Counted from the stretch's first letter, positions 1-15,636 are shown. The stretch: 64,000 nucleotides of DNA from an uncultured Bacteroidales bacterium (GCA_900320385.1 ONSD01000019.1:4444-68443), one strand, 5' to 3'. Program-made: numbers and translations. The notes: generated by a model from the sequence alone, not told the origin.

Positions 1-1497
1 GTCGACTGGTACAAGGCCATTTCCGACGACCTGCTCTACAGCGTCGCGGTACCCGCCGAGGCTGGTGCCACGAACGGCAGCGTGACCATGAACGCCGCTA
101 CGATGGTGAACACCGGTCTCGAGCTCGCAGCCGCCTACCACAACTACGACCACGCCCTCAAGTACGACATCTCCGGCAACGTAACGTTCCCCAGGAACGT
201 GGTTACCAAACTCGGTACCGGCGAGAGCCGCGTTGACGGTTTTACCAAGACCGAGCAGGGCAAGGAAGTGGGCCAGTTCTACGGTTATGTCTATGAAGGT
301 ATCTTCCAGAGCCAGAGCGAGATCGACAACCATGTCAACGCCCAGGGCAACATCATAACCCAGCAGGGCGCACAGCCCGGCGACGTGGCCTATGCCGACA
401 TCAGCGGCCCCGACGGAGTTCCGGACGGTGAGATCACGACCGACGACCAGACCTATCTGGGAAGCGGCATGCCCGATGTCAACTTCGGTCTCAGCTTCAG
501 GCTGGAATACAAGAACTTCGACCTTTCCGTATCCACCTTCGGCGCACTCGGATTCAAAGTCCTCGACTACATCGACATGGTACTCCACTCCTCGTACGGC
601 GTTACCAACAAGAGTGTGGACCTCATCAAATCCTGGACTCCCGAGAACCCCAGCACCACTATCCCGGCTTCGTACTACAAGACAGGCAGCACGGTCACCA
701 ACGACCTCTTCAGCGCCAGGTTCCTGCAGAACGGCGATTACTGGAAGCTTGCCAACGTCGAACTCGGATACAACTTCAGGGAAGACTGGTTCCACGGCCT
801 GATCAGCGGCGTACGCGTGTACGTATCCGGCCAGAACCTCTTTACGCTTTCGAAGTACCGCGGATACAACATCGACTTCGCAGGCGGCACCTTCACTCCC
901 GGCTACAACTACTGCTCGTACCCGACTCCCCGCACCTTCATGGCCGGCGTCAAGCTCTCGTTCAGGGGCGATGATCCCGCCGCACACGTAGATGCGGATG
1001 CCGCAGCAGCGGCAGCACAGGCCCTCGCCGCAGCGGAAGCCGCAGCAAGGGCGGCCCGTGCCGAGGCAGACAAGGCCAACCGCCGTGCGGAACAGGCTGA
1101 GGCTGCACTTGGCGCCTGCCGCACCGAGAATGCCGAGCTCAGGAACAAGCCCGCCACCGTGGAGAAATACGCTGATTACTTCGACGAACCCTTCATCGCT
1201 TACTTCACCATCGGCAAGAGCGTGCTCTCCGCCAGCGAGGTCGAACACGTGAAGGCCGCTGCCCGCAGGATACTTGCTGGCGGCAACAAGGTACGCTTCA
1301 CCCTCGCAGGCCATGCCGACTCCGGCACCGGCTCGCAGGCACGCAACGAACAGCTCGCAAGGGAGCGCGTGCAGACCGTCTACAACCTCATGAAGGAAAT
1401 GGGCGTGGATCCCGCACTCTTCACCGTCACCTCCAGCGTGGAGGACATATTCTCCACTCCTGAGCTCAACAGGTGTGTAATCGTTGACAAACAGTAA
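1..1497 (+). CDS. susC: SusC/RagA TonB-dependent transporter (5'-truncated by window) fused to a C-terminal coiled coil and OmpA-like peptidoglycan-binding domain
   Basis: Frame is open from base 1 (VDWYKAISDDLLY). SusC C-terminal motifs GIFQS, QPGDVAYADISG, VRVYVSGQNLFT and YPTPRTFMAGVKLSF (F at 961-963) are present. These are followed by an Ala-rich helix and the OmpA_C motif GHADSGTG..N..LARER..V..NRCV. SusD follows. Confidence 0.9.
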   Translation, partial: VDWYKAISDDLLYSVAVPAEAGATNGSVTMNAATMVNTGLELAAAYHNYDHALKYDISGNVTFPRNVVTKLGTGESRVDGFTKTEQGKEVGQFYGYVYEGIFQSQSEIDNHVNAQGNIITQQGAQPGDVAYADISGPDGVPDGEITTDDQTYLGSGMPDVNFGLSFRLEYKNFDLSVSTFGALGFKVLDYIDMVLHSSYGVTNKSVDLIKSWTPENPSTTIPASYYKTGSTVTNDLFSARFLQNGDYWKLANVELGYNFREDWFHGLISGVRVYVSGQNLFTLSKYRGYNIDFAGGTFTPGYNYCSYPTPRTFMAGVKLSFRGDDPAAHVDADAAAAAAQALAAAEAAARAARAEADKANRRAEQAEAALGACRTENAELRNKPATVEKYADYFDEPFIAYFTIGKSVLSASEVEHVKAAARRILAGGNKVRFTLAGHADSGTGSQARNEQLARERVQTVYNLMKEMGVDPALFTVTSSVEDIFSTPELNRCVIVDKQ

Positions 1498-1515: not shown

Positions 1516-3288
1516 ATGAAAAAGATACTTGTTATACTCGCGGCCCTGGCCATCATCGGCGGAATGACCGCATGTGAAGACGAACTGAACGTAGTCAACG
1601 TCAACAACCAGACGACATACGACTTCGGCGACGCCCAGGACGAACTGGAAGAAGCCGTCATAGCCTGCTACAACAGGATACGTCTCGAGGGTACCTTCGC
1701 CCGCGTGGGCTACACCATGGATGCCGTCCGCGGCGACGAAGTGTGGAACTCATCGCAGCAGTGGTACCTCCCCTACGACAATTACAATGCTCCGGCCAGC
1801 GACGAAATCGGCAACATGTGGATCTGGCGCGACTGCTACCATGTGGTTAACCGCTGCAACTTCGTGCTGAAGAAGGTGGAAGACGCAAAGCTTTCCGACG
1901 AGGCCTACAATCAGATCAAGGGACAGGCACTGTTCCTCAGGGGCCTCGCCTACTATGAGATAGCCACTTATTATCAGTCCGCCCCGCTCTTCACGGATTA
2001 TTCCCAGTACTCCAGCATGGAGGGGATGTATGCCGAGCAGGCAAGCCTGGACGAACTTATGGACCAGGTGGATTCCGATTTCTCCGAGGCCATGGGCATG
2101 CTCCCTTCGCGCAACAAGGGAGGAGAGTGGGCGAAGGGCCGCGCCACCTGCGGAGCGGCTGCAGGCTATTACGCCCGTTCGCTTATGTTCCGTCACAAAT
2201 ACGACGAAGCCCTCACCGTCCTCAAGGATATCATTTCCGGCAAGTACGGAAGCTACCGCCTCATGGCGGACTATGGCGACAACTTCCGCGAAGGCACCGC
2301 CTATGAGAACAACGACGAAAGCCTCTTCGAGGTGCAGTTCCTCGACTATGGCATGGGCGGATCCGACGAGGAATGGACTCCCGTGAACATCTCGTCCAAC
2401 GCCACCCAGGGCCATGCGGTCGAAAGCAATTACGCTTCGCAGGCTCTCGGCAGCTGGGGCGACCTCGCCGGCGCTCCATGGCTCTACAATCTCTTCAAGG
2501 CTGAAAAGACCACCGACGGCCAGCTCGACCCGAGGCTCTACTGGACTCTGGTAACCTACGAACCCGAATATGATACTTATACCGGGCTCAAGGATGTGGC
2601 TTACCCCGACGGCGACCCGCGCAGCAACGTGGTCTACATGGAAGCCATCAGTTCCACCCCGCGTTCCAACGGCAATCAGGGAGGCATTTCCATCGCCAAG
2701 TTCACCAATGCCCGCAACAACATCTACAGCAGCATCACCACCGGACTGCACTGCGGCGTGAACCTGAGGCTCATGCGCTACAGCGACGTGCTGCTGCGCG
2801 CGGCCGAATGCATCAACGAGGTGAGCGGCCCGAATGCCGAGGCCATAGGCTACATCAACCAGGTGCGCAGGCGTGCCGGGCTCGCCGACATCAGCCTCTC
2901 GGACTTCTCCTCGGCCGACAAGCTCTTCGAGCAGATAGCCAATGTGGAACGCCCGAAGGAATTCGGTTGCGAGAACGGACGCGGCATCGACCTCATCCGC
3001 TGGGGATTCTTCTATGACGAGGGACGCCGGAACCAGCTGGCACAGCATACCAGCTACCACTTCGACGACCCCGACGCAGGAGTGTCAACCGCCGAAGAGA
3101 CCACGGCTACCGCCAGTGACTACTCCATGAAGTACTATACCCCGGGTCATGAGTACTTCATGATCGCCCAGAGCACCATGAACAACAACCAGAGCCTTGT
3201 CGGCAACTCCGCCAACAACAACAGCGACAACAGCTCCTGGTACAGCGGGAACGGCTGGTCCGTGCACCCCGTAGTGGATCTGGACTAA
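1516..3288 (+). CDS. susD: SusD/RagB nutrient-binding lipoprotein
   Basis: Lipoprotein signal (MTAC); SusD motifs GQALFLRGLAY, DPRL, LMRYSDVLLRAAE, INQVRRRAG, ERPKEFGCENGRGIDLIRWG; directly after susC. Confidence 0.95.
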   Translation: MKKILVILAALAIIGGMTACEDELNVVNVNNQTTYDFGDAQDELEEAVIACYNRIRLEGTFARVGYTMDAVRGDEVWNSSQQWYLPYDNYNAPASDEIGNMWIWRDCYHVVNRCNFVLKKVEDAKLSDEAYNQIKGQALFLRGLAYYEIATYYQSAPLFTDYSQYSSMEGMYAEQASLDELMDQVDSDFSEAMGMLPSRNKGGEWAKGRATCGAAAGYYARSLMFRHKYDEALTVLKDIISGKYGSYRLMADYGDNFREGTAYENNDESLFEVQFLDYGMGGSDEEWTPVNISSNATQGHAVESNYASQALGSWGDLAGAPWLYNLFKAEKTTDGQLDPRLYWTLVTYEPEYDTYTGLKDVAYPDGDPRSNVVYMEAISSTPRSNGNQGGISIAKFTNARNNIYSSITTGLHCGVNLRLMRYSDVLLRAAECINEVSGPNAEAIGYINQVRRRAGLADISLSDFSSADKLFEQIANVERPKEFGCENGRGIDLIRWGFFYDEGRRNQLAQHTSYHFDDPDAGVSTAEETTATASDYSMKYYTPGHEYFMIAQSTMNNNQSLVGNSANNNSDNSSWYSGNGWSVHPVVDLD

Positions 3289-3357: not shown

Positions 3358-5121
3358 ATGAGATTCTTCAAATATCTTTTCCCCTTCGCCATAGCGGCCG
3401 GCCTTGCCCTTGTTTCCTGCGACAAGGATCCGCAGGAAGGCAGCGGCATCCACACGAAACCGGTGGACGGCGATGAAACAGTCACCCCTTCCACCCAGGA
3501 AAAGAGCGGCTTCACCATGTCGACCGGCTACTGGGCCCCCGCTGTCCGCAAAGTAAACGTGAACGGGGTCGAAAAACTTCGCATGTACTACTGCCTGGTG
3601 CCCTCCAACTGCATAAAGACGGGCTCCCCCGATTTTGACGGCAGCTGGACGGAACGCGCCATCATCGGCATGTGCGAAAGCAGCGATCCGGCCGGAGGCA
3701 GGTGGGAAGACAAGGGATATGTCGTCTGCTCGTCATCCGACAAGGGGCGCGACGGCTATGCCAGGAGCAGCGAAAGCGACTGGAACGCATATTTCTATTA
3801 CAACGCCATCGACCCCACTTATATCGTGAACCCGGCGGGCGACGGCAAGGATTACCTCATCTACGGATCGTGGCACAGCGGCTTCGCCCTCCTGGAGATC
3901 GACCATGTCACCGGCAAGCCCGTGAACGCTCCGGGAGACCCGTGGGCGGGCAGCGCCGCGGAACTCTCTTCCCGCTTCGGGGTGCGCATCGGTACCCGCA
4001 ATTCCAATTCCCGCTGGCAGGGCAGCGAGGCCCCCGAAATCATTTACAAGGACGGTTATTATTATCTGTTCATGGCTTATGACGGCCTGGATGTCCCCTA
4101 CAACACCCGCGTAGTGCGCTCCACAAGCATCGAAGGCCCGTACAAGGACATAACCGGCCGCAATTTCACAAACGGCCGCGGCGACTGCTTCCCCATCGTC
4201 ACCCATCCCTACAAGTTCAGCAAGGGTTACGGCTGGGTGGGCATTTCGCACTGCGCCGTCTTCCCTGAAGAAGGCGGGAGCGAATGGTTCTACATGTCGC
4301 AGGGACGCTTCCCCGTCAACGTGGGGGGCAACGCTTACAGCAACGCCCTCATGATGGGGCACGTGCGCAGGCTGGCATGGGTACCGGCATCTCCCGACAC
4401 ACCTGACGACCTGTGGCCCGTCGCCCTTCCCGAACGCTACGGCGCGGTTCCCCAAAGCCCCGTTTCCAAAGAAGAAATCGCAGGCACCTGGGAGCATATC
4501 AACCTCGGCTACCATTATGCTGCCCAGGACGCATCCGAAGACCTCCTGCTCCTTCCGGACGGCACCATGTCGGGTGCCCTCAACGGCAAGTGGAGTTACG
4601 ACGCCGGCACAGGCCTGCTCACCCTGGACGACAATGCTACTGCCGCACCGGTATGCGTGAAGGTGACACGCGAACTCGACTGGGAAGCATCCCCAAGGGT
4701 GCCGACCCTCGTCTATGCCGGCACCGGGGTCAGCCTCAACGCTACATGGTGGGGCAAGAAGGTGGCGGAGGCCGACGGTTCTGCCATTGCCGCCACGCCG
4801 GGATACACCGCTCCCTCATACAACGACAATTACGTTTCCCTCGCCGCATGGTCGCACCACGACAGCTGGAATCTCGCGAACACCCACGATCCCTCGGTGG
4901 CATACTTCGACGGCTACTATTATGAGTGGGGCACGGACGCCTCCTATGGAAACGCGCATCTCGACGCCGCCAGCGGCAGGCACTTCCCCGGAAAGAGGAG
5001 CCGGAACCTGGTGGACTGGGAATATGTCCCCGGTCCTTTCAACGCCACTCCCCAATGGGCGGCCGACACTCTTAATTCCATACGCAAGCGCATGGGACTC
5101 AAATCGATAGCTAAAGATTAA
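3358..5121 (+). CDS. GH43 endo-1,5-alpha-L-arabinanase-like lipoprotein, circularly permuted
   Basis: Lipobox LVSC. GH43 motifs WAP, NAIDP, YGSWHSG, GSEAP and GISHCAV are followed by the C-terminal domain (..WWGKK). The normally N-terminal WNLANTHDPSV..TDASYGNAH..SRNLVDW block is at the extreme C-terminus. Confidence 0.88.
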   Translation: MRFFKYLFPFAIAAGLALVSCDKDPQEGSGIHTKPVDGDETVTPSTQEKSGFTMSTGYWAPAVRKVNVNGVEKLRMYYCLVPSNCIKTGSPDFDGSWTERAIIGMCESSDPAGGRWEDKGYVVCSSSDKGRDGYARSSESDWNAYFYYNAIDPTYIVNPAGDGKDYLIYGSWHSGFALLEIDHVTGKPVNAPGDPWAGSAAELSSRFGVRIGTRNSNSRWQGSEAPEIIYKDGYYYLFMAYDGLDVPYNTRVVRSTSIEGPYKDITGRNFTNGRGDCFPIVTHPYKFSKGYGWVGISHCAVFPEEGGSEWFYMSQGRFPVNVGGNAYSNALMMGHVRRLAWVPASPDTPDDLWPVALPERYGAVPQSPVSKEEIAGTWEHINLGYHYAAQDASEDLLLLPDGTMSGALNGKWSYDAGTGLLTLDDNATAAPVCVKVTRELDWEASPRVPTLVYAGTGVSLNATWWGKKVAEADGSAIAATPGYTAPSYNDNYVSLAAWSHHDSWNLANTHDPSVAYFDGYYYEWGTDASYGNAHLDAASGRHFPGKRSRNLVDWEYVPGPFNATPQWAADTLNSIRKRMGLKSIAKD

Positions 5122-5134
5122 AAAGATATCCAGA

Positions 5135-7075
5135 ATGAAAAACCTGACCTCTCTCATAGCAGCGGCCCTGTTGGCGGCGGCATGTTCGCAGCCCGCGCAT
5201 ATTTTCGAGATAGCCGCCGACAAACCGGGAGCCGAAATCCAGTCCACGATGTACGGCGTCTTCTTCGAGGACATCAACTTCGGAGCCGACGGCGGCCTTT
5301 ATGCCGACATGGTGAAGAACCGTTCTTTCGAGTTCCCGAATGCCTTCATGGGATGGGAGACTTTCGGCAACGTGGAACTGCGTACCGGCGGGCCTTTCCC
5401 GCGCAACCCGCACTATGTCCACCTCGGCTATTCCGGGCACAGCGACAAATTCTCCGGACTCGAGAACGAAGGATTCTTCGGGATGGGCCTCAAGGAAGGG
5501 GCTAAATATGACTTTTCGGTATATGCCCGCGGAACGGGATCGCTTCGCGTCGCCTTCGTGGACGACGACACCATGGAGGAACGCCAGATGTTCGCCGAAG
5601 ACACCCTGTTCGTCTCCGACCCCGCCTGGAAGAAATACACCCTTGCCATAGAATCTCCCCTTACCATCCAGGACGCGCACCTGCGCCTCACCCTCATAGG
5701 TGACGGTTCCCTCGACATAGAGCACGTTTCGCTCTTCCCGCAGGACAGCTGGAACGGACTGCGCGCCGACCTGGTGAAGGCGCTGGAAGACCTGAAGCCC
5801 GGCGTGTTCCGCTTCCCCGGCGGCTGCATAGTGGAAGGAGCCGAACTCTCTACCCGCTATCAGTGGAAGAACAGCGTGGGCCCGGTGGAGAACCGGCCGC
5901 TGAACGAGAACCGCTGGCATTATACCTTCGATTACAAATTGTTCCCCGACTATTTCCAGAGCTACGGACTCGGATTCTACGAGTATTTCCTGCTCTGCGA
6001 GCATCTGGGAGCCGAACCCCTGCCGGTCATCAGCTGCGGCCTGGCCTGCCAGTTCCAGAACTGGGACAAGCCCGAAGCGCACGTTCCCGTAAAGGACCTT
6101 GGGCCCTACATCCAGGACGCCCTCGACCTGGTCGAATTCGCTAACGGCGCCGTCACCACGAAGTGGGGCAAGGTCCGCGCCGACATGGGTCATCCGGAGC
6201 CTTTCGGCATGAAGTACCTCGCCGTGGGCAACGAGCAGTGGGACTATCTGTATCCCGAGCGCCTCGTCCCCTTCGTGGAAGCGCTCCGCGAAGCCTATCC
6301 CGACCTCAAGATAATAGGCACGTCCGGTCCCGATTCCGAAGGCAAGCAGTTCGAATACCTCTGGCCCGAAATGCGAAGGATAGGGGTCGACCTCGTGGAC
6401 GAGCACTTCTACCGTCCCGAGAGCTGGTTCCTCGCCGAGGGCACCCGCTATGACGATTATCCCCGCGAAGGCCCCAAGGTGTTCGCCGGCGAATATGCAT
6501 GCCACGGCAAAGGCAAGAAGTGGAACCACTTCGAAGCCTCCCTGCTCGAGGCCGCGTTCATGACCGATATCGAGCGTAACGCCGACATAGTGCACATGGC
6601 CACCTACGCACCCCTCTTCGCCCATGTGAAGGGATGGCAGTGGAGGCCGGACCTCATCTGGTTCGACAATCTCGAGACAGTGCGCAGCTGCAGCTATTAC
6701 GTGCAGCAGCTCTACTCCCTCAACAAGGGCACCAACGTGCTGTCCCTCACAATGGACGGCAAGCCCGTGGCCGGGCTCGAAGGCCAGGACGGCCTCTTCG
6801 CCTCGGCCGTATGTGATTCCGGAACCGGAGAGGTGATAGTGAAGATAGCCAACACATCTGCCGAAGCCCAGACCGTCAGGCTGGAATTCAGCGGGGTGAG
6901 CCTCGGTGCAGGCAAGCTTTTCAGCCTTCATTCCGACGACCCCGATGCAGACAACAGCCTCGAAGAACCCTGCAAGGTGGTTCCGGTAGAATCGGCAGTG
7001 AAAGCCAGCGGCAGCAGCCTCGATGCAAAGGTGCCCGCACAGACATTCCAGGTATACAGGATTCCAGTAAAATAA
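5135..7075 (+). CDS. GH51 alpha-L-arabinofuranosidase (lipoprotein signal)
   Basis: YGVFFEDINFGADGGLYA, RFPGGC, GNEQW (acid/base), DEHFY, GEYA (nucleophile), ATYAPLF, WRPDLIWFD. Confidence 0.93.
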   Translation: MKNLTSLIAAALLAAACSQPAHIFEIAADKPGAEIQSTMYGVFFEDINFGADGGLYADMVKNRSFEFPNAFMGWETFGNVELRTGGPFPRNPHYVHLGYSGHSDKFSGLENEGFFGMGLKEGAKYDFSVYARGTGSLRVAFVDDDTMEERQMFAEDTLFVSDPAWKKYTLAIESPLTIQDAHLRLTLIGDGSLDIEHVSLFPQDSWNGLRADLVKALEDLKPGVFRFPGGCIVEGAELSTRYQWKNSVGPVENRPLNENRWHYTFDYKLFPDYFQSYGLGFYEYFLLCEHLGAEPLPVISCGLACQFQNWDKPEAHVPVKDLGPYIQDALDLVEFANGAVTTKWGKVRADMGHPEPFGMKYLAVGNEQWDYLYPERLVPFVEALREAYPDLKIIGTSGPDSEGKQFEYLWPEMRRIGVDLVDEHFYRPESWFLAEGTRYDDYPREGPKVFAGEYACHGKGKKWNHFEASLLEAAFMTDIERNADIVHMATYAPLFAHVKGWQWRPDLIWFDNLETVRSCSYYVQQLYSLNKGTNVLSLTMDGKPVAGLEGQDGLFASAVCDSGTGEVIVKIANTSAEAQTVRLEFSGVSLGAGKLFSLHSDDPDADNSLEEPCKVVPVESAVKASGSSLDAKVPAQTFQVYRIPVK

Positions 7076-7082
7076 AAAAAAT

Positions 7083-9167
7083 ATGGGAAAGTACGATTGG
7101 AAATACGCCAACGTGGGAGGAGCCTCCCGCGTGCTGATCAGGACGGGCGAAGACATCGCCCATCTCGCAGAACTCGACCGCAAGCAGTGGACGGTGCTCA
7201 GCTGCCCGGTCAAGGGCCTTGAATTCGATTCCAGGACCCTTCAACTGCTCGATTCCGACGGAGACGGCCACATACATGTAGACGAAGTGATAGCCGTTTC
7301 GCAGTGGCTCAGCGCCGCCCTCAAGGATCCGGGCATACTCCTCAAAGGCGAGGGAACCCTCGCCCTCGACGCACTTTCCGACAGCGAAGAAGGTGAAAAA
7401 CTGCGCAAATCGGCCCTCCAGATCCTCGGGAACCTCGGAGCGGAAGACTTGAGCACCATCTCGATCGAGCAGACTTCGGACCTGGCGAAGATCTTTGCCG
7501 GAAGCCGTTTCAACGGCGACGGGGTCATCACCCCCACCAGCGCCGAAGACGAGGACCTCAAGGCCCTGATAGGCAAGATTGCCGAGATCAGCGGAGGTGC
7601 TGACGACCGTTCAGGAGAAAAGGGTGTGAACGCCGAACAGATCGAAGCATTCTACACCGCTTGCAGCGACTATGCCGCGTGGAAGGCCGCCGCAGGCAAG
7701 GACACACTCCCCTACGGAGAATCCACCGCAGCCGCCATGGATGCATGCAACGCACTCGCCGACAAGATCGCCGACTTCTTCATGCGCTGCAAGCTCATAG
7801 CCTTCGATTCCGAAGCCGCCCCGGCTGTTGACGTGGATATAGAAAAGATCAAGGCCATAGGAGGAGAAGACCTTTCCGGCAGTTCCGAAAAGATAGCTGC
7901 CCATCCGCTTGCGAGACCTACCGCCGAAGGGCTGCTGCCCCTGGACGGCAGCATCAACCCCGCCTGGCAGGGTGCTTTCGCAAGCCTCAAGGAACTTGTC
8001 TTCGATAAGGATTTCAAGGACAGGAAGGCCATCAGCGAAGCCGACTGGAATACAGTACTCGGCAAGTTCAGCACCTACAAGGAGTGGCTGGGCGCCAAAA
8101 AGGGTGCAGAGGTAGAAGCGCTGGGGCTCGACGAAATCAAAGCCATACTCAAGGCCGACAGGAAGGCAGCCCTAATGGAACTTGTCGAGAGTGACAAGGC
8201 CCTGGAAAGCGAGGCTCTCGGCATCGAAGCCGTGGACAAGCTCCTGCATTACTGCCGCGACTTCTATTCGTTCCTTTGCAACTACGTAGTATTCAGCGAC
8301 TTCTACGATTCCGACAAGAAGGCCGTCTTCCAGGCCGGCAAGCTCTATGTCGACCAACGCTGCTGCGAACTCTGCGTAAGCGTGGACGACATGGGACGTC
8401 ATGCAGACATGCCGGCTCACAGCGGCATGTTCCTCATCTACTGCGACTGCAAATCCAAGCTGGACGGCAGCAAGCGCACCATCGTGGCGGCCGTTACCAA
8501 GGGCAGCATCGACGGCCTGATCCCCGGCAAGAACGGCGTTTTCTACGACCGCGACGGTCTCGACTACGACGCTACCATCACCAAGGTCGTGGATAATCCC
8601 ATCAGTGTGCTCCAGGCATTCTGGTCGCCCTACCGCAAGTTCGGCAAATGGATTTCAGAACGCTTCGGCAAGAAGGCCGCCGACAAGGAAGCCGCAGGAT
8701 TCGATACCATGACCGCCAAGGCTGCTGAAGCCCCCGTACCGGGCGCAGCAGCTGCTCCGGCCGCTCCCAAGTCCTCTTTCGACATCGCCAAGTTCGCCGG
8801 CATATTCGCCGCCATAGGCATGGCCATCGCCTATCTGTCGCAAGCACTCGTCGCCCTGGCCAGGGGAGCATCCAATGCAGGCTGGCTCAAGGTCCTTCTG
8901 GTGATCGCAGCCATCATGCTGGTCATCTCCCTGCCCTCCATGATCCTCGCATGGATCAAGTTGCGCAAGCGCGACGTTGGCCCGGTGCTCAACGCCAACG
9001 GCTGGGCCATCAACGCCCGCTCGTACGTAAGGCCGCGTTTCGGCAAGACCCTGACCAGCGTAGCCAAGTACCCGAAAGTCAAGAAGTCGGGCCGCGGAAC
9101 GGTCATCCTCATCGTCGTCCTGCTCCTGATCCTCGCACTTCTCGCGGTGTACTATTTCTTCCTTTAA
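7083..9167 (+). CDS. Hypothetical EF-hand-containing protein with C-terminal transmembrane helices
   Basis: Canonical 12-residue EF-hand loop DSDGDGHIHVDE at 7251-7286; no signal peptide; three hydrophobic segments near the C-terminus. Confidence 0.8.
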   Translation: MGKYDWKYANVGGASRVLIRTGEDIAHLAELDRKQWTVLSCPVKGLEFDSRTLQLLDSDGDGHIHVDEVIAVSQWLSAALKDPGILLKGEGTLALDALSDSEEGEKLRKSALQILGNLGAEDLSTISIEQTSDLAKIFAGSRFNGDGVITPTSAEDEDLKALIGKIAEISGGADDRSGEKGVNAEQIEAFYTACSDYAAWKAAAGKDTLPYGESTAAAMDACNALADKIADFFMRCKLIAFDSEAAPAVDVDIEKIKAIGGEDLSGSSEKIAAHPLARPTAEGLLPLDGSINPAWQGAFASLKELVFDKDFKDRKAISEADWNTVLGKFSTYKEWLGAKKGAEVEALGLDEIKAILKADRKAALMELVESDKALESEALGIEAVDKLLHYCRDFYSFLCNYVVFSDFYDSDKKAVFQAGKLYVDQRCCELCVSVDDMGRHADMPAHSGMFLIYCDCKSKLDGSKRTIVAAVTKGSIDGLIPGKNGVFYDRDGLDYDATITKVVDNPISVLQAFWSPYRKFGKWISERFGKKAADKEAAGFDTMTAKAAEAPVPGAAAAPAAPKSSFDIAKFAGIFAAIGMAIAYLSQALVALARGASNAGWLKVLLVIAAIMLVISLPSMILAWIKLRKRDVGPVLNANGWAINARSYVRPRFGKTLTSVAKYPKVKKSGRGTVILIVVLLLILALLAVYYFFL

Positions 9168-9177
9168 ATAAATTTCA

Positions 9178-9185
9178 TACCTTTG
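9178..9185 (+). promoter_or_regulatory. Bacteroidetes -7 promoter element
   Basis: TACCTTTG matches TAnnTTTG, 29 nt before ATG 9215. Confidence 0.55.
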
Positions 9186-9214
9186 CACGGATTTATTCAA
9201 ACTTTTATTTAAAA

Positions 9215-9838
9215 ATGAAAAAGATTATCCTTACCCTTGCCCTTGCGGCAATTGCTACCAGCGCATTCGCTCAGATCAGCGTAGGCGGCGGTTATCTCAG
9301 CTCTACCAAGACCAGCGGTGACAACGCTTTTACTGGCCAGGGTTTCTATGCAGGTGTCGACTATAACATCCATCTTGGAACTTCCGGCCTCGGTGTAGCT
9401 CCCGGCGTGTTCTACAGCAGCATCACCGATGAATCCCGGGCATCCCTTATCGGCGGAATCGCCAAGATCGAAGGCAAGACGGTCGAGCAGTTCATCAACG
9501 TTCCCGTTAACTTCAACTACGGCTTCAACTTCGTTGACGGCGCCCTCAAGCTCTCGCTCTATGCAGGTCCTACCCTGAACTATTGCATCAGCTCCAAGAC
9601 CACCCTTTCCGGCAGTGTTGCAGGCGTCGGCGGAAGCACCGATCCTACCAACAACTTCGAGGCTGACAAGGACTACAAGCCCCTCAACGTACTCGTAGGC
9701 GGCGGTGTCGCCCTTGACATCGTTGAAACCATCCGTGTCAACTTCGGTTACAACTACGGCCTTATGGACCTCCACGCAAATGAGAACATCACCCTCAAGC
9801 GCGCCGGCTGGCATGTAGGCCTCGCTCTGGTATTCTAA
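9215..9838 (+). CDS. Outer-membrane beta-barrel (porin family, small barrel) protein
   Basis: Signal peptide MKKIILTLALAAIATSAFA, amphipathic beta strands, terminal F. True start is 9215, not 8951. Confidence 0.85.
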   Translation: MKKIILTLALAAIATSAFAQISVGGGYLSSTKTSGDNAFTGQGFYAGVDYNIHLGTSGLGVAPGVFYSSITDESRASLIGGIAKIEGKTVEQFINVPVNFNYGFNFVDGALKLSLYAGPTLNYCISSKTTLSGSVAGVGGSTDPTNNFEADKDYKPLNVLVGGGVALDIVETIRVNFGYNYGLMDLHANENITLKRAGWHVGLALVF

Positions 9839-11853: not shown

Positions 11854-14800
11854 ATGACATTCAAAGAATACAAGGGACTGGATTTGGTAGATGTAGGGAA
11901 CAGGGTACTGCACCATTGGCAGGAGATCCATGCCTTCGAGAAGAGCGTGGAACTGAGGCAGGGAGCACCTGAGTTCATATTCTTTGAAGGTCCGCCGTCG
12001 GCCAACGGCAAACCGGGCATCCATCATGTCATGGCGCGCTCCATCAAGGACGCCGTCTGCCGCTACAAGACGCAGACCGGTTACCAGGTGCGCCGCCGTG
12101 CAGGATGGGACACCCACGGGCTCCCCGTCGAAATAGGCGTCGAGAAGAAGCTCGGCATCCACAAGGAGGACATAGGTACGCGCATCAGCGTGGAAGAATA
12201 CAACGCCACCTGCCGTTCGGAAGTGATGAAATACACCGCCGAATGGGAGAACCTTACCGAAAGGGTCGGCTACTGGGTGGACATGAAAGACCCGTACATC
12301 ACCTATGACAACCGCTATATCGAAACCCTCTGGTATCTGCTGAAGGACATCTACGACAAGGGACTTCTCTACAAGGGATATTCGATTCAGCCTTTCAGCC
12401 CGTCCGACGGCACCGGCCTCAGCAGCCACGAGCTCAACCAGCCCGGCTGCTACAAAGACGTTACCGACACCACCTGCACCGTGCAGTTCGAGATGGTTCC
12501 GGACGATGCCCACAAGGCCCTCTTCGCCGACGGCCCCCTCTTCTTCATAGCATGGACCACCACTCCGTGGACCCTTCCCAGCAACATGGCGCTCTGCGTC
12601 GGGCCAAAGATCGACTACGTGCGCGTGAAGGCGGCCAATCCCTACAGCTCGGAGCCGGCAGTGTACCTGGTAGCCCAGGCTTTGGTAGAAACCTGGTTCG
12701 GGAAGATCCCGCACGAAGTGCTCCCCGGCATCGTCAAGGGCTCTGAACTCACCGGGCTGCATTACAAGCAGCTTATCCCCTGGTTCAAATCGGCCCAGGC
12801 GGGCAAGGCCTTCGAAGTAATAAGCGGAGACTATGTAACCACCGAGGAAGGAACCGGCATCGTGCACATCGCCGGCACCTTCGGCGCCGACGACAAGCGC
12901 GTGAGCGAGCAGAACGGGATCGCAGCCATGATGGTCCTCGACAAGGCCGGTGTACGCCAGGCCCAGGTGGACCGCGAAGGCCGCTTCTACCGCCTCGAAG
13001 ACCTCGACCCGCAGTATGTCAAGGACTGCGTCGATCCCTCTTACGCCGCGTTTGCCGGCCGTTATGTGAAGAATGCGTTCGACGACACGCTTCCCTCCGA
13101 CGCCCCCACCCTCGACGTGGACCTCTGCGTCATGCTCAAGCAGGAGGGCAAGGCCTTCAGGATACAGAAGCACGTGCACAGCTACCCCCACAGCTGGCGC
13201 ACCGACAAGCCGGTGCTCTATTATCCGCTGGACGCCTGGTTCATCAAGACTACCGCCGTCAAGGACAAGATGGTGGAACTCAACAAACAGATCAGCTGGA
13301 AGCCGGAATCCACCGGTACCGGCAGGTTCGGACAGTGGCTGGAGAACATCCAGGACTGGAACCTCAGCCGCAGCCGTTTCTGGGGCACCCCCCTGCCGAT
13401 TTGGCGTACCGAAGACGGCCGGGAGGAAATCTGCATCGGCAGCGTAAAACAGTTCTTCAACGAGATCGACAAGGCCGTGGAAGCCGGTATCATGCCGTCC
13501 AACCCGCTAAGGGACAAGGGCTTCGACCCTGAAGACATGAGCCTCGCCAACTACGACAGGATAGATCTCCACAGGCCGTATGTCGACAATATCTTCCTCG
13601 TAAGCCCCAGCGGCAAGAAGATGACCCGCGAGACCGACCTCATCGACGTATGGTTCGATTCCGGATCCATGCCCTATGCCCAGACGGGCCTGCGCGGACT
13701 CGCTTCCCCCGATTTCGGCGTAACCGCCGACTTCATCGCCGAAGGCGTCGACCAGACCCGCGGCTGGTTCTACACCCTGCATGCCATCCATACCATGGTG
13801 AGCGGGACCCCGGCTTTCAAGAGGGTAATCTCCAACGGCCTCGTGCTCGACAAGGACGGCAACAAGATGAGCAAGCGTCTCGGCAATGCCGTCGATCCTT
13901 TCCTCGAGCTGGACAAATACGGCGCGGACGCCCTCCGCTGGTACATGCTCACCAACGCCCAGCCCTGGGACAACCTCCGCTTCGACGAACTGGGAGTGGA
14001 TGAGGTGCGCCGCAAATTCTTCGGAACCCTCTACAACACATATTCCTTCTTCGCACTGTACGCCAACGTGGACGGTTTCGATCCCGCCGGCGCCAGGCAT
14101 ATCCCGTATTCCGACAGGCCGGAAATCGACCGCTGGATAATCTCCAGGCTCAACACCCTCATCGACGAGGTGCGCTCCGCCTACGAAGACTACGACATCA
14201 CCCTGGCAGGCCGCCTGATCCAGGACTTCGTGTGCGACCACGTATCCAACTGGTACGTCCGCCTCAACCGCAAGCGTTTCTGGGGCGGAGAACTCTCCGC
14301 GGACAAACTGGCCGCTTACGAAACCCTCTATGAGGTGCTCAGGGACGTTGCCGTGCTCATGGCGCCCATCGCCCCGTTCTACAGCGACCAGCTTTACAGG
14401 GACCTCGTTCCGGCGGCGGAAAGCGTACACTTCACCCTCATGCCCGAGAGCAACCATGTCCTGGTGGACAAGGACCTCGAAGAACGCATGGAACTCGCCC
14501 AGAAAGCCACTTCGCTCGTCCTAGCGCTCCGCCGCAAGGTCAACATCAAGGTGCGCCAGCCCCTCAGCAAGCTGGTTATCCCGGTGCTCTCCGACAAGGT
14601 GCGTTCCCAGTTCGAACAGGTCAAGGACCTCATACTCGGCGAAGTGAACGTCAAGGAGGCCGAATTCATTACCGATACGACCGGAATCATCACCAAGAAG
14701 ATAAAACCGAATTTCCGCTCGCTGGGAAAGAAATACGGCCCGCGAATGAAGGAAATCGCCGCCGCATTCGCTAAACTGGACCAGGCCACCATTTCCGCCA

Positions 14801-15636
14801 TACAGAGCGCCGGCAACTACAGCCTGCAACTCGACGGCGGGGCCGTGGACCTCGCTCCCGAAGACTACGAGATCAGTTCAGAGGATATGCCGGGATGGTT
14901 CGTAGCTACCGAAGGCCAGCTGACCATAGCGCTCGACGTGGAAGTCAGCGATGCACTGCGTGCCGAAGGCGTCGCCCGCGAACTCATCAACCGTATACAG
15001 AACCTGCGCAAGGACAGCGGTTTCGAACTTACCGACAAGATAGCCGTGACAATTTGTGCCGACGGTGCAGCGTATGACGAGATCGCGGCATCTTTGCAGC
15101 AGTACAAGGATTATATCTGCGCCCAGACACTTGCCCTGGCGCTCGACCTCCGCAAGGGAGGGGACGCCGGCCGCGAGGTGGACTGGGATGAAGGAACCAT
15201 CAGGATAGAAGTAAACAAAACAGATTCCATAACTATGACAGAAGAGACCAAAACCCGTTATACCGACGAAGAACTCGCCGAGTTCCGCGTCATTATCGAG
15301 GGTATGCTCGAAAAGGCAAGGGCCGAGTACGACACCCTCCGCAAGGTGGTGATGCACGGTGGCAACAATGACATCGAGGACACTTCGCCCACTTTCAAGA
15401 CCGTCGAGGACGACGGTGCCAACCAGCTTACCAAGGAGGAAGCCAGCCAGCTCGCTCAGAGGCAGTACAAGTTCATCAAGAACCTGGAAGCCGCCCTCGT
15501 ACGCATCGAGAACAAGACATACGGCATCTGCCGCGTCACCGGAAAGCTGATCCCGAAGGAGAGGCTACGCCTGGTGCCGCACGCCACCCTCACGGTAGAG
15601 GCTAAGGAGATGCTTGCAAAACAGGGCAAGAACTGA
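11854..15636 (+). CDS. ileS: Isoleucine--tRNA ligase (type 2) with in-frame C-terminal DksA/TraR-family domain
   Basis: GPPSANGKPGIHH, GWDTHGLP, WTTTPWTL, DWNLSRSRFWG, EGVDQTRGWF, KMSKR. There is no stop before the DksA-like region starting at 15235. Confidence 0.93.
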   Translation: MTFKEYKGLDLVDVGNRVLHHWQEIHAFEKSVELRQGAPEFIFFEGPPSANGKPGIHHVMARSIKDAVCRYKTQTGYQVRRRAGWDTHGLPVEIGVEKKLGIHKEDIGTRISVEEYNATCRSEVMKYTAEWENLTERVGYWVDMKDPYITYDNRYIETLWYLLKDIYDKGLLYKGYSIQPFSPSDGTGLSSHELNQPGCYKDVTDTTCTVQFEMVPDDAHKALFADGPLFFIAWTTTPWTLPSNMALCVGPKIDYVRVKAANPYSSEPAVYLVAQALVETWFGKIPHEVLPGIVKGSELTGLHYKQLIPWFKSAQAGKAFEVISGDYVTTEEGTGIVHIAGTFGADDKRVSEQNGIAAMMVLDKAGVRQAQVDREGRFYRLEDLDPQYVKDCVDPSYAAFAGRYVKNAFDDTLPSDAPTLDVDLCVMLKQEGKAFRIQKHVHSYPHSWRTDKPVLYYPLDAWFIKTTAVKDKMVELNKQISWKPESTGTGRFGQWLENIQDWNLSRSRFWGTPLPIWRTEDGREEICIGSVKQFFNEIDKAVEAGIMPSNPLRDKGFDPEDMSLANYDRIDLHRPYVDNIFLVSPSGKKMTRETDLIDVWFDSGSMPYAQTGLRGLASPDFGVTADFIAEGVDQTRGWFYTLHAIHTMVSGTPAFKRVISNGLVLDKDGNKMSKRLGNAVDPFLELDKYGADALRWYMLTNAQPWDNLRFDELGVDEVRRKFFGTLYNTYSFFALYANVDGFDPAGARHIPYSDRPEIDRWIISRLNTLIDEVRSAYEDYDITLAGRLIQDFVCDHVSNWYVRLNRKRFWGGELSADKLAAYETLYEVLRDVAVLMAPIAPFYSDQLYRDLVPAAESVHFTLMPESNHVLVDKDLEERMELAQKATSLVLALRRKVNIKVRQPLSKLVIPVLSDKVRSQFEQVKDLILGEVNVKEAEFITDTTGIITKKIKPNFRSLGKKYGPRMKEIAAAFAKLDQATISAIQSAGNYSLQLDGGAVDLAPEDYEISSEDMPGWFVATEGQLTIALDVEVSDALRAEGVARELINRIQNLRKDSGFELTDKIAVTICADGAAYDEIAASLQQYKDYICAQTLALALDLRKGGDAGREVDWDEGTIRIEVNKTDSITMTEETKTRYTDEELAEFRVIIEGMLEKARAEYDTLRKVVMHGGNNDIEDTSPTFKTVEDDGANQLTKEEASQLAQRQYKFIKNLEAALVRIENKTYGICRVTGKLIPKERLRLVPHATLTVEAKEMLAKQGKN
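15235..15636 (+). CDS. DksA/TraR-family transcription factor (in frame with ileS; may also initiate independently)
   Basis: TRYTDEELAEFR, RQYKFIKNLEAALVRIENKTYGICRVTGKLIPKERLRLVPHATL (Bacteroidetes DksA-like, single Cys); ileS-dksA-lspA order. Confidence 0.85.
   Translation: MTEETKTRYTDEELAEFRVIIEGMLEKARAEYDTLRKVVMHGGNNDIEDTSPTFKTVEDDGANQLTKEEASQLAQRQYKFIKNLEAALVRIENKTYGICRVTGKLIPKERLRLVPHATLTVEAKEMLAKQGKN

Follow-up and report, generated by a model that had tools for sequence, protein, structure and literature searches.

SusC-type TonB-dependent transporters extended by a helical stalk and an OmpA-like domain: candidate outer-membrane-to-wall tethers in a genus of Bacteroidales

Background

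In the usual picture, a TonB-dependent transporter is a free-standing barrel whose last strand is also the end of the protein. SusC transporters are dimeric, and in a 22-strand barrel both termini lie in the periplasm. The BAM β-signal can be internal, as it is in OmpA itself. OmpA-like proteins of P. gingivalis have been reported to be trimeric. In the lipoprotein Lpp the spacer measures 56 residues and, to our knowledge, Bacteroidota lack Braun's lipoprotein. A different arrangement has been described in diderm Firmicutes, where OmpM joins an SLH domain at its N-terminus to a coiled coil proven to be trimeric and to a 16-strand diffusion porin (PMC10628300).

Here we analyse a stretch of 64,000 nucleotides from an uncultured Bacteroidales bacterium of the rumen (G000:C94:4444-68443), referred to throughout as the window, which opens inside a long ORF on the + strand. 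An earlier note on this DNA had described the ORF as a SusC transporter running on into a helix and an OmpA-like domain, and had supposed that this architecture was uncharacterised. The supposition holds, in that full-text literature searches found no paper describing a SusC or other TonB-dependent transporter with an OmpA tail. We were interested in establishing whether the fusion is genuine, where its tail comes from, how widely it occurs and what it may do.

Results

The fused gene and its locus

Direct reading and translation show that the SusC frame stays open past the terminal Phe of the barrel. The SusC part ends in ...FMAGVKLSF, 177 further codons precede the stop, and the susD start codon follows after a gap of 18 nt (Table 1); both the absence of a stop after the barrel and the 18-nt spacing are as the earlier note had given them. 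The gene begins before the window opens, at G000:C94:2191, and its product has 1249 aa by the start chosen here, or 1247 aa as called in databases. TIGR04056 (SusC/RagA) matches the whole gene with 853 bits (cut-off 368.25) over model positions 2-981, and the last model position, 981, falls on the terminal Phe, residue 321 of the window ORF. Members of the family typically stop at the terminal aromatic residue, although this is no formal criterion of TIGR04056; here 177 residues lie beyond it. The fused protein also matches Plug (PF07715, 81.9 bits) and the CarboxypepD_reg-like N-terminal domain (PF13715, 61.3 bits), and a TonB-box-like stretch, DQVVVIGYG, can be read directly before the plug in the protein sequence P0003.

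Table 1. Features of the fused gene and of the genes that follow it (positions in the window)
Feature	Position	Strand	Basis
SusC/RagA barrel, C-terminal third	1..963	+	TIGR04056 alignment
Terminal aromatic Phe (TTC) of the last barrel strand; position of the C-terminus in untailed orthologues	961..963	+	Alignment to P0012
Ala/Glu/Arg-rich helical stalk (predicted), tail residues 5-61	976..1146	+	AlphaFold2
Short non-helical connector between stalk and OmpA domain (predicted), tail residues 62-75	1147..1188	+	AlphaFold2
OmpA-C-like (peptidoglycan-binding type) domain, tail residues 76-177	1189..1494	+	PF00691, PDB 9uu2, Foldseek
Conserved Asp, tail D119 in GHAD	1318..1320	+	Alignment A1, 9uu2
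Conserved Arg, tail R135 in LARER	1366..1368	+	Alignment A1, 9uu2
Stop codon TAA of the fused gene	1495..1497	+	Direct reading
susD-like lipoprotein gene	1516..3288	+	SusD_RagB, SusD-like_3
GH43	3358-5121	+	Glyco_hydro_43 + GH43_C
GH51-type alpha-L-arabinofuranosidase	5135-7075	+	ASD1_dom + Alpha-L-AF_C
694-aa ORF, last co-oriented gene of the arabinan locus	7083-9167	+	No Pfam match at E <= 1e-4

The locus runs in the order Big_3 protein, susC-OmpA, susD, GH43, GH51 and 694-aa protein, and the GH43 and GH51 genes beside susC and susD point to an arabinan-type PUL. The Big_3 protein (582 aa; L009:436-2184, +), encoded directly upstream of the tailed susC and outside the window, has only a faint match to that domain; it is kept beside tailed susC in other assemblies, and may be a surface glycan-binding protein of the locus. 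A 295-aa ORF with an OMP_b-brl match (8951-9838) overlaps the end of the 694-aa ORF in another frame.

The tail consists of a predicted helical stalk and an OmpA-type domain

On the tail alone, PF00691 (OmpA) scores 32.2 bits against a gathering cut-off of 27.2, with a match spanning model positions 1-78 of 98; in longer contexts the score is 27.6-29.4 bits, the full-length protein, at 27.6, being barely above the cut-off. The AlphaFold2 model of the tail, built on a 40-sequence alignment, has a mean pLDDT of 91.8 and consists of one unbroken helix over tail residues 5-61 (pLDDT 92-98), a connector at which the pLDDT dips to about 67, and a beta/alpha OmpA-C fold. The predicted stalk of 57 residues would measure about 8-8.5 nm, at 0.15 nm per residue. 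When the model was compared with known structures by Foldseek, the best match for the OmpA domain was 9uu2 (TM 0.87, rmsd 1.4 Å, 36% identity, probability 1.00), which a sequence search against the PDB also matched to the tail domain (E 9.5e-10). Further matches with probability 1.00 were OprF (5u1h), two A. baumannii proteins, Pal (4g4w) and OmpA (3td3-5), and the OmpA of C. gingivalis (5wtp/5wtl); one of the A. baumannii OmpA structures contains a peptidoglycan peptide in bound form.

Six tail residues, G116, D119, G123, N128, R135 and R170, are invariant in an alignment of 40 tails (A1). D119 aligns to the D of GYAD in 9uu2 and R135 to the R of LSQKRA; we take the former to be the canonical diaminopimelate-contacting Asp of OmpA-like domains and the latter its canonical partner Arg. 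By sequence and fold, the tail domain has what peptide-stem binding of peptidoglycan needs. The earlier note had claimed an Ala-rich helix of about 55 aa past the barrel and an OmpA_C-like domain with its Asp and Arg retained, and had proposed a Pfam search and an AlphaFold model as checks. Both now agree with it, and the HMM, fold and residue alignment results together make its description of the sequence right in every detail that was checked.

The stalk is different in character, with low sequence conservation and few large hydrophobic residues, and where the earlier note had put a coiled coil the model predicts a single helix. A trimer prediction with three copies of the tail (alignment A1) gave a score of 0.11 against a mark of 0.42, and weighs on neither side. 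In 15 of 16 transporter fusions the linker from the terminal aromatic residue to the first OmpA strand measures 74-83 aa, and the stalks of these fusions have almost no mutual sequence identity, BLAST finding little or nothing.

The fusion is genuine

Logan contigs from four runs bridge the junction with few substitutions. They come from bovine (600-1391), goat (600-999 plus 972-1700) and sheep (867-1255) gut-metagenome runs and from an RNA library (600-1391), where bridging of the junction is not in itself proof of transcription. No indel or joint was found at the junction in these contigs from the bovine, goat and sheep DNA and the one RNA run. Furthermore, the identical 1247-aa protein is present, with the same neighbours, in three independent ENA assemblies, one of them from the PRJEB21624 metagenome. 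The 90%-identity cluster of the fused protein contains 14 distinct variants, all 14 full-length and intact; of their variable sites, 8 lie in the SusC part (1070 residues) and 5 in the tail (177 residues). An artefact (misassembly, a sequencing error deleting a stop, or two genes wrongly joined) is almost certainly not the explanation and was rejected, as was readthrough, since no support for it was found, fragmented as this MAG is (171 contigs, 77% complete), and against it stand the bridging of the junction without indels in independent runs, the same protein in independent assemblies, and a layout common to five tailed paralogues in this genome and to many fusions in other species. The fusion is thus confirmed as genuine, and it occurs repeatedly in natural populations.

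The tail as an addition related to OmpA-type proteins

The best untailed relative of the fused protein, P0012 (1065 aa, annotated as 'TonB-dependent receptor [Bacteroidales bacterium]'), shows 72% identity to it across 1072 alignment columns, and its C-terminus coincides exactly with ...KLSF; more than 100 clusters of about 1052-1077 aa have the same barrel end as the focal SusC. Because a class of 72%-identical orthologues stops exactly at this point, the tail is, judged by sequence comparison, an addition to a SusC lineage that otherwise ends at the terminal Phe, and since these orthologues lack it, it would not be needed for transport. The earlier note had counted close orthologues ending at KLSF, with no other instance of the fusion, against its own reading; the first part holds for the closest orthologue, but the second does not, as other fusions exist.

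A phmmer search of 1.84 billion cluster representatives showed that the relatives of the tail, among the best 150 matches, are almost all proteins of 360-430 aa, matched across stalk and domain. No transporter-length protein was among these 150, an absence of little weight as to rarity, as the cluster heads that stand for fused proteins may be untailed SusC sequences. The genome itself encodes such a protein, a 378-aa OmpA-type protein on contig C48 whose matching tail was found by tblastn. In its model an 8-strand barrel is followed by a helix of 51 residues and then by the OmpA domain. Full-length E. coli OmpA is the closest PDB match to the protein, whose OmpA domain is 69-75% identical to those of the tailed transporters. 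On sequence and model, the tail, stalk included, is homologous to the C-terminal half of this 8-strand OmpA/OprF-type protein. That the relatives of about 400 aa are matched over both stalk and domain fits an origin from an OmpA-type porin, and an 8-strand protein of the C48 type is the likely source of the module.

A shared cassette within one genome

By tblastn, six transporters of this genome carry the tail, namely the focal one on C94 and five other TonB-dependent transporters: two SusC proteins encoded on C137, a non-SusC, Oar-like TonB-dependent barrel on C99, and SusC proteins on C131 and C96, two contigs that both break inside the tail. The OmpA domains of the tailed genes are 64-91% identical, whereas their barrels are 24-44% identical or unrelated. 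Compared with its orthologue from another assembly (P0009), the C99 protein is 81.7% identical in the barrel and 73.6% in the OmpA domain, whereas the OmpA domains of C99 and C94, in the same genome, are 90.6% identical. On C131 and C96 the barrels are 44% identical and the final 87 nt are identical, starting near the OmpA-domain start (EYFESP motif). These contrasts between barrel and domain, together with the identical 87-nt ends, indicate that the OmpA domain has been gene-converted or very recently copied within the genome.

The start of contig C150 overlaps the 87-nt stretch of C131 and C96 by 47 nt, and C150 and C163 are 98.8% identical over 83 nt at the tail end, after which different susD-like genes follow. 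Four contig ends (C131 end, C96 end, C150 start and C163 start) meet in one OmpA cassette, and the MAG is broken at these places because of this near-identical repeat.

The other tailed loci include a nuclease locus, a locus with a 1735-aa DUF4957/DUF5123 protein and a GH30 locus, and with such unrelated substrates the tail is not tied to any one of them. The nuclease locus (L118, G000:C99:6000-15900; L010), with the tailed Oar-like barrel at its head, encodes two BACON-domain proteins, which are lipoproteins, a DNA/RNA non-specific endonuclease (Endonuclease_NS), an endonuclease/exonuclease/phosphatase-family protein and a second CarboxypepD_reg barrel, and it looks like a system for extracellular nucleic-acid scavenging. 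The 1735-aa protein (L119:1882-7086, G000:C137) follows the susD of a tailed SusC and has fn3, three DUF5123 and four DUF4957 stretches.

Distribution in the genus and beyond

A within-genus search found a tail-like match in 271 of 400 genomes, mostly on ORFs of about 400 aa. Tailed ORFs longer than 1200 aa are present in at least eight other species of the genus, and all fetched examples consist of a SusC gene followed by susD, so that the survey of related genomes proposed in the earlier note did find the same architecture. The tail is carried by 9 of 36 SusC proteins in one genome (G268) and by 5 of 31 in another (G133). It is patchy, being found on a minority of SusC genes and in a minority of the species of the genus. 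Among 400 Bacteroidales genomes from outside the genus, covering about 150 families, there was no tailed transporter, and matches at E <= 1e-9 fell only on proteins of about 400 aa. A search of genome contigs with the tail as query gave no confirmed relative locus. For a second tail type, a word-based protein search returned no fewer than 34 additional clusters at 90% identity that have both Plug and OmpA; where these are named they are called only 'SusC/RagA family', public annotations ignoring the tail.

In a quick maximum-likelihood tree of tails, the transporter-borne ones form at least three to four separate clades nested among tails of small barrels; well-supported branches alone force at least three state changes, and one truncated locus is mislabelled. 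One of the transporter clades has a different, non-helical linker. Separate clades and a different linker suggest that transporters have probably captured the tail more than once. In another species of the genus, a 1255-aa SusC (L031, G255:C13) carries its OmpA domain on a 50-residue linker rich in Glu, Lys, Val and Pro rather than Ala; its tail lies on a long separate branch of the tree, and this fusion is probably independent.

With IleRS as marker, the named genomes that come closest are MAGs from rumen and hindgut, several of them labelled Candidatus Cryptobacteroides and some Muribaculaceae by NCBI, and the host genus is probably Candidatus Cryptobacteroides. The isoleucyl-tRNA synthetase-type gene of the window (tRNA-synt_1; 11854-15636, +) has a C-terminal DUF5915 and a dksA/traR zinc finger.

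Discussion

These results describe a natural lineage that has repeatedly joined a domain of the cell-wall-anchor type to TonB-dependent importers. We consider it probable, from sequence and structural models, that the tailed SusCD importer doubles as a non-covalent tether between the outer membrane and the wall. The focal gene, part of an arabinan locus, encodes an entire SusC-type TonB-dependent transporter, and the last strand of its barrel runs on into a periplasmic module; since the C-terminus of a 22-strand barrel is periplasmic, stalk and OmpA module would hang in the periplasm. There the OmpA-like domain would bind peptidoglycan non-covalently, and it is from this binding, which we infer, that a second role as tether would follow. 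The stalk would set a fixed distance of about 8 nm between outer membrane and wall, the importer would be immobilised, and envelope-stabilising links would be added in proportion to the abundance of the transporter.

Several observations count against a tether. In the full-length context PF00691 only just passes its threshold, and 78 of its 98 model positions are covered. Orthologues 72% identical lack the tail, a minority of the SusC genes in a genome have it, and no substrate logic is apparent; the cassette could have spread by gene conversion at little benefit. Finally, the stalk is poorly conserved and short of large hydrophobic residues, and the model predicts a single helix only.

Among the alternatives, an unlikely one is that the tail serves mainly in assembly. 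Different tailed transporters, and with them the small OmpA-type protein, would form dimers or trimers through their stalks and OmpA domains and so gather SusCD importers in wall-anchored clusters; homogenisation within the genome would be selected because it keeps partners compatible. Such a role would suit OmpA domains that are homogenised across unrelated barrels and the resident C48 protein, as well as the dimeric state of SusC and the trimeric state reported for P. gingivalis OmpA-like proteins; however, conservation is lowest in the stalks, which would be the obvious element for oligomerisation, and neutral gene conversion between repeats would also homogenise the domains. A more specific proposal, which we regard as quite unlikely, is that the tail is a shared docking module: through their tails, different SusCD importers would assemble on the wall with one another and with the resident OmpA-type porin, and selected importers would thereby be organised into fixed uptake patches, with the length-conserved stalk setting the distance and gene conversion keeping the partners compatible. 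If true, TonB-dependent transporters would be arranged in the outer membrane in a manner not known before.

It is also rather improbable that the cassette is nearly neutral, spread by recombination between repeated OmpA sequences, without a specific role for the importer and tolerated since a periplasmic extension leaves the barrel undisturbed. Neutral spread would account for a tail that is patchy across the SusC genes and species of the genus, is missing from close orthologues, sits in loci with unrelated substrates and bears clear signs of gene conversion. It accounts less well for the fact that every examined copy is intact with invariant binding residues, that linker length is kept across tail types with almost no common sequence, that at least three to four separate tail clades are found on transporters, and that dozens of clusters persist across ruminant hosts.

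Very unlikely, in our estimate, is a role as a mechanical brace, in which the barrel, anchored to the wall, and the membrane with it would be kept in place against the pull of TonB on the plug. It agrees with topology only, in that the tail leaves the periplasmic rim of a barrel whose plug TonB pulls, and with the tail on the Oar-like, non-SusC TonB-dependent barrel of C99. Against it, the same module is present on a plugless 8-strand barrel, its likely source, and most TonB-dependent transporters, the 72%-identical orthologues included, work without a tail.

For the tether itself, the earlier note had offered retention of the barrel outside vesicles as a possible rationale. This is a weak argument, because B. 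thetaiotaomicron already keeps untailed SusC, and likewise an OmpA-type protein, in the outer membrane and not in vesicles (PMC6222051). Tailed transporters side by side with untailed, 72%-identical orthologues provide a clean natural experiment, and they raise the question of how coupling an importer to peptidoglycan affects transport, membrane mobility, vesicle sorting and envelope strength. They also raise the questions of how the spacing between outer membrane and wall is set in Bacteroidota, and of how a domain cassette can spread through paralogous outer-membrane proteins while its copies remain homogeneous. The host organisms are abundant rumen fibre degraders.

Compared with canonical SusC/RagA proteins, such as SusC of B. 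thetaiotaomicron or P0012, the focal protein has the same signal peptide, CarboxypepD_reg-like domain, plug and 22-strand barrel, the same terminal aromatic strand and an adjoining susD in a glycan utilisation locus; unlike them, it has 177 extra residues, predicted to be periplasmic, which comprise the stalk and the OmpA-like domain. With OmpA/OprF-type proteins (C48 and its Bacteroidales relatives of about 400 aa) it shares the order barrel, helix, OmpA domain and an internal beta-signal, but its barrel is that of a 22-strand, plugged, TonB-dependent importer and not an 8-strand one, and the focal-type linker is about 10 residues longer than that of C48.

Two further systems resemble it in design. 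Like Lpp and Pal it would link the outer membrane to the wall, as proposed here; the helical spacer of Lpp is of similar length and Pal shares the OmpA-like fold, but both are anchored by lipid and not by a barrel, neither is part of a transporter, and Lpp is attached covalently. Like OmpM, it would unite in one chain a barrel for nutrient uptake, a long helical stalk in the periplasm and a domain of the wall-binding type (PMC10628300), an arrangement that is predicted in the present case. Unlike in OmpM, the binding-type domain is C-terminal and OmpA-like, no SLH domain being matched by Pfam in the focal protein, and the barrel belongs to an active transporter; there is no homology between the two, and OmpM is a functional analogue of the tailed SusC. 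All the parts of the tailed transporters are of known kinds; what is new is their combination, its recurrence and their concerted evolution.
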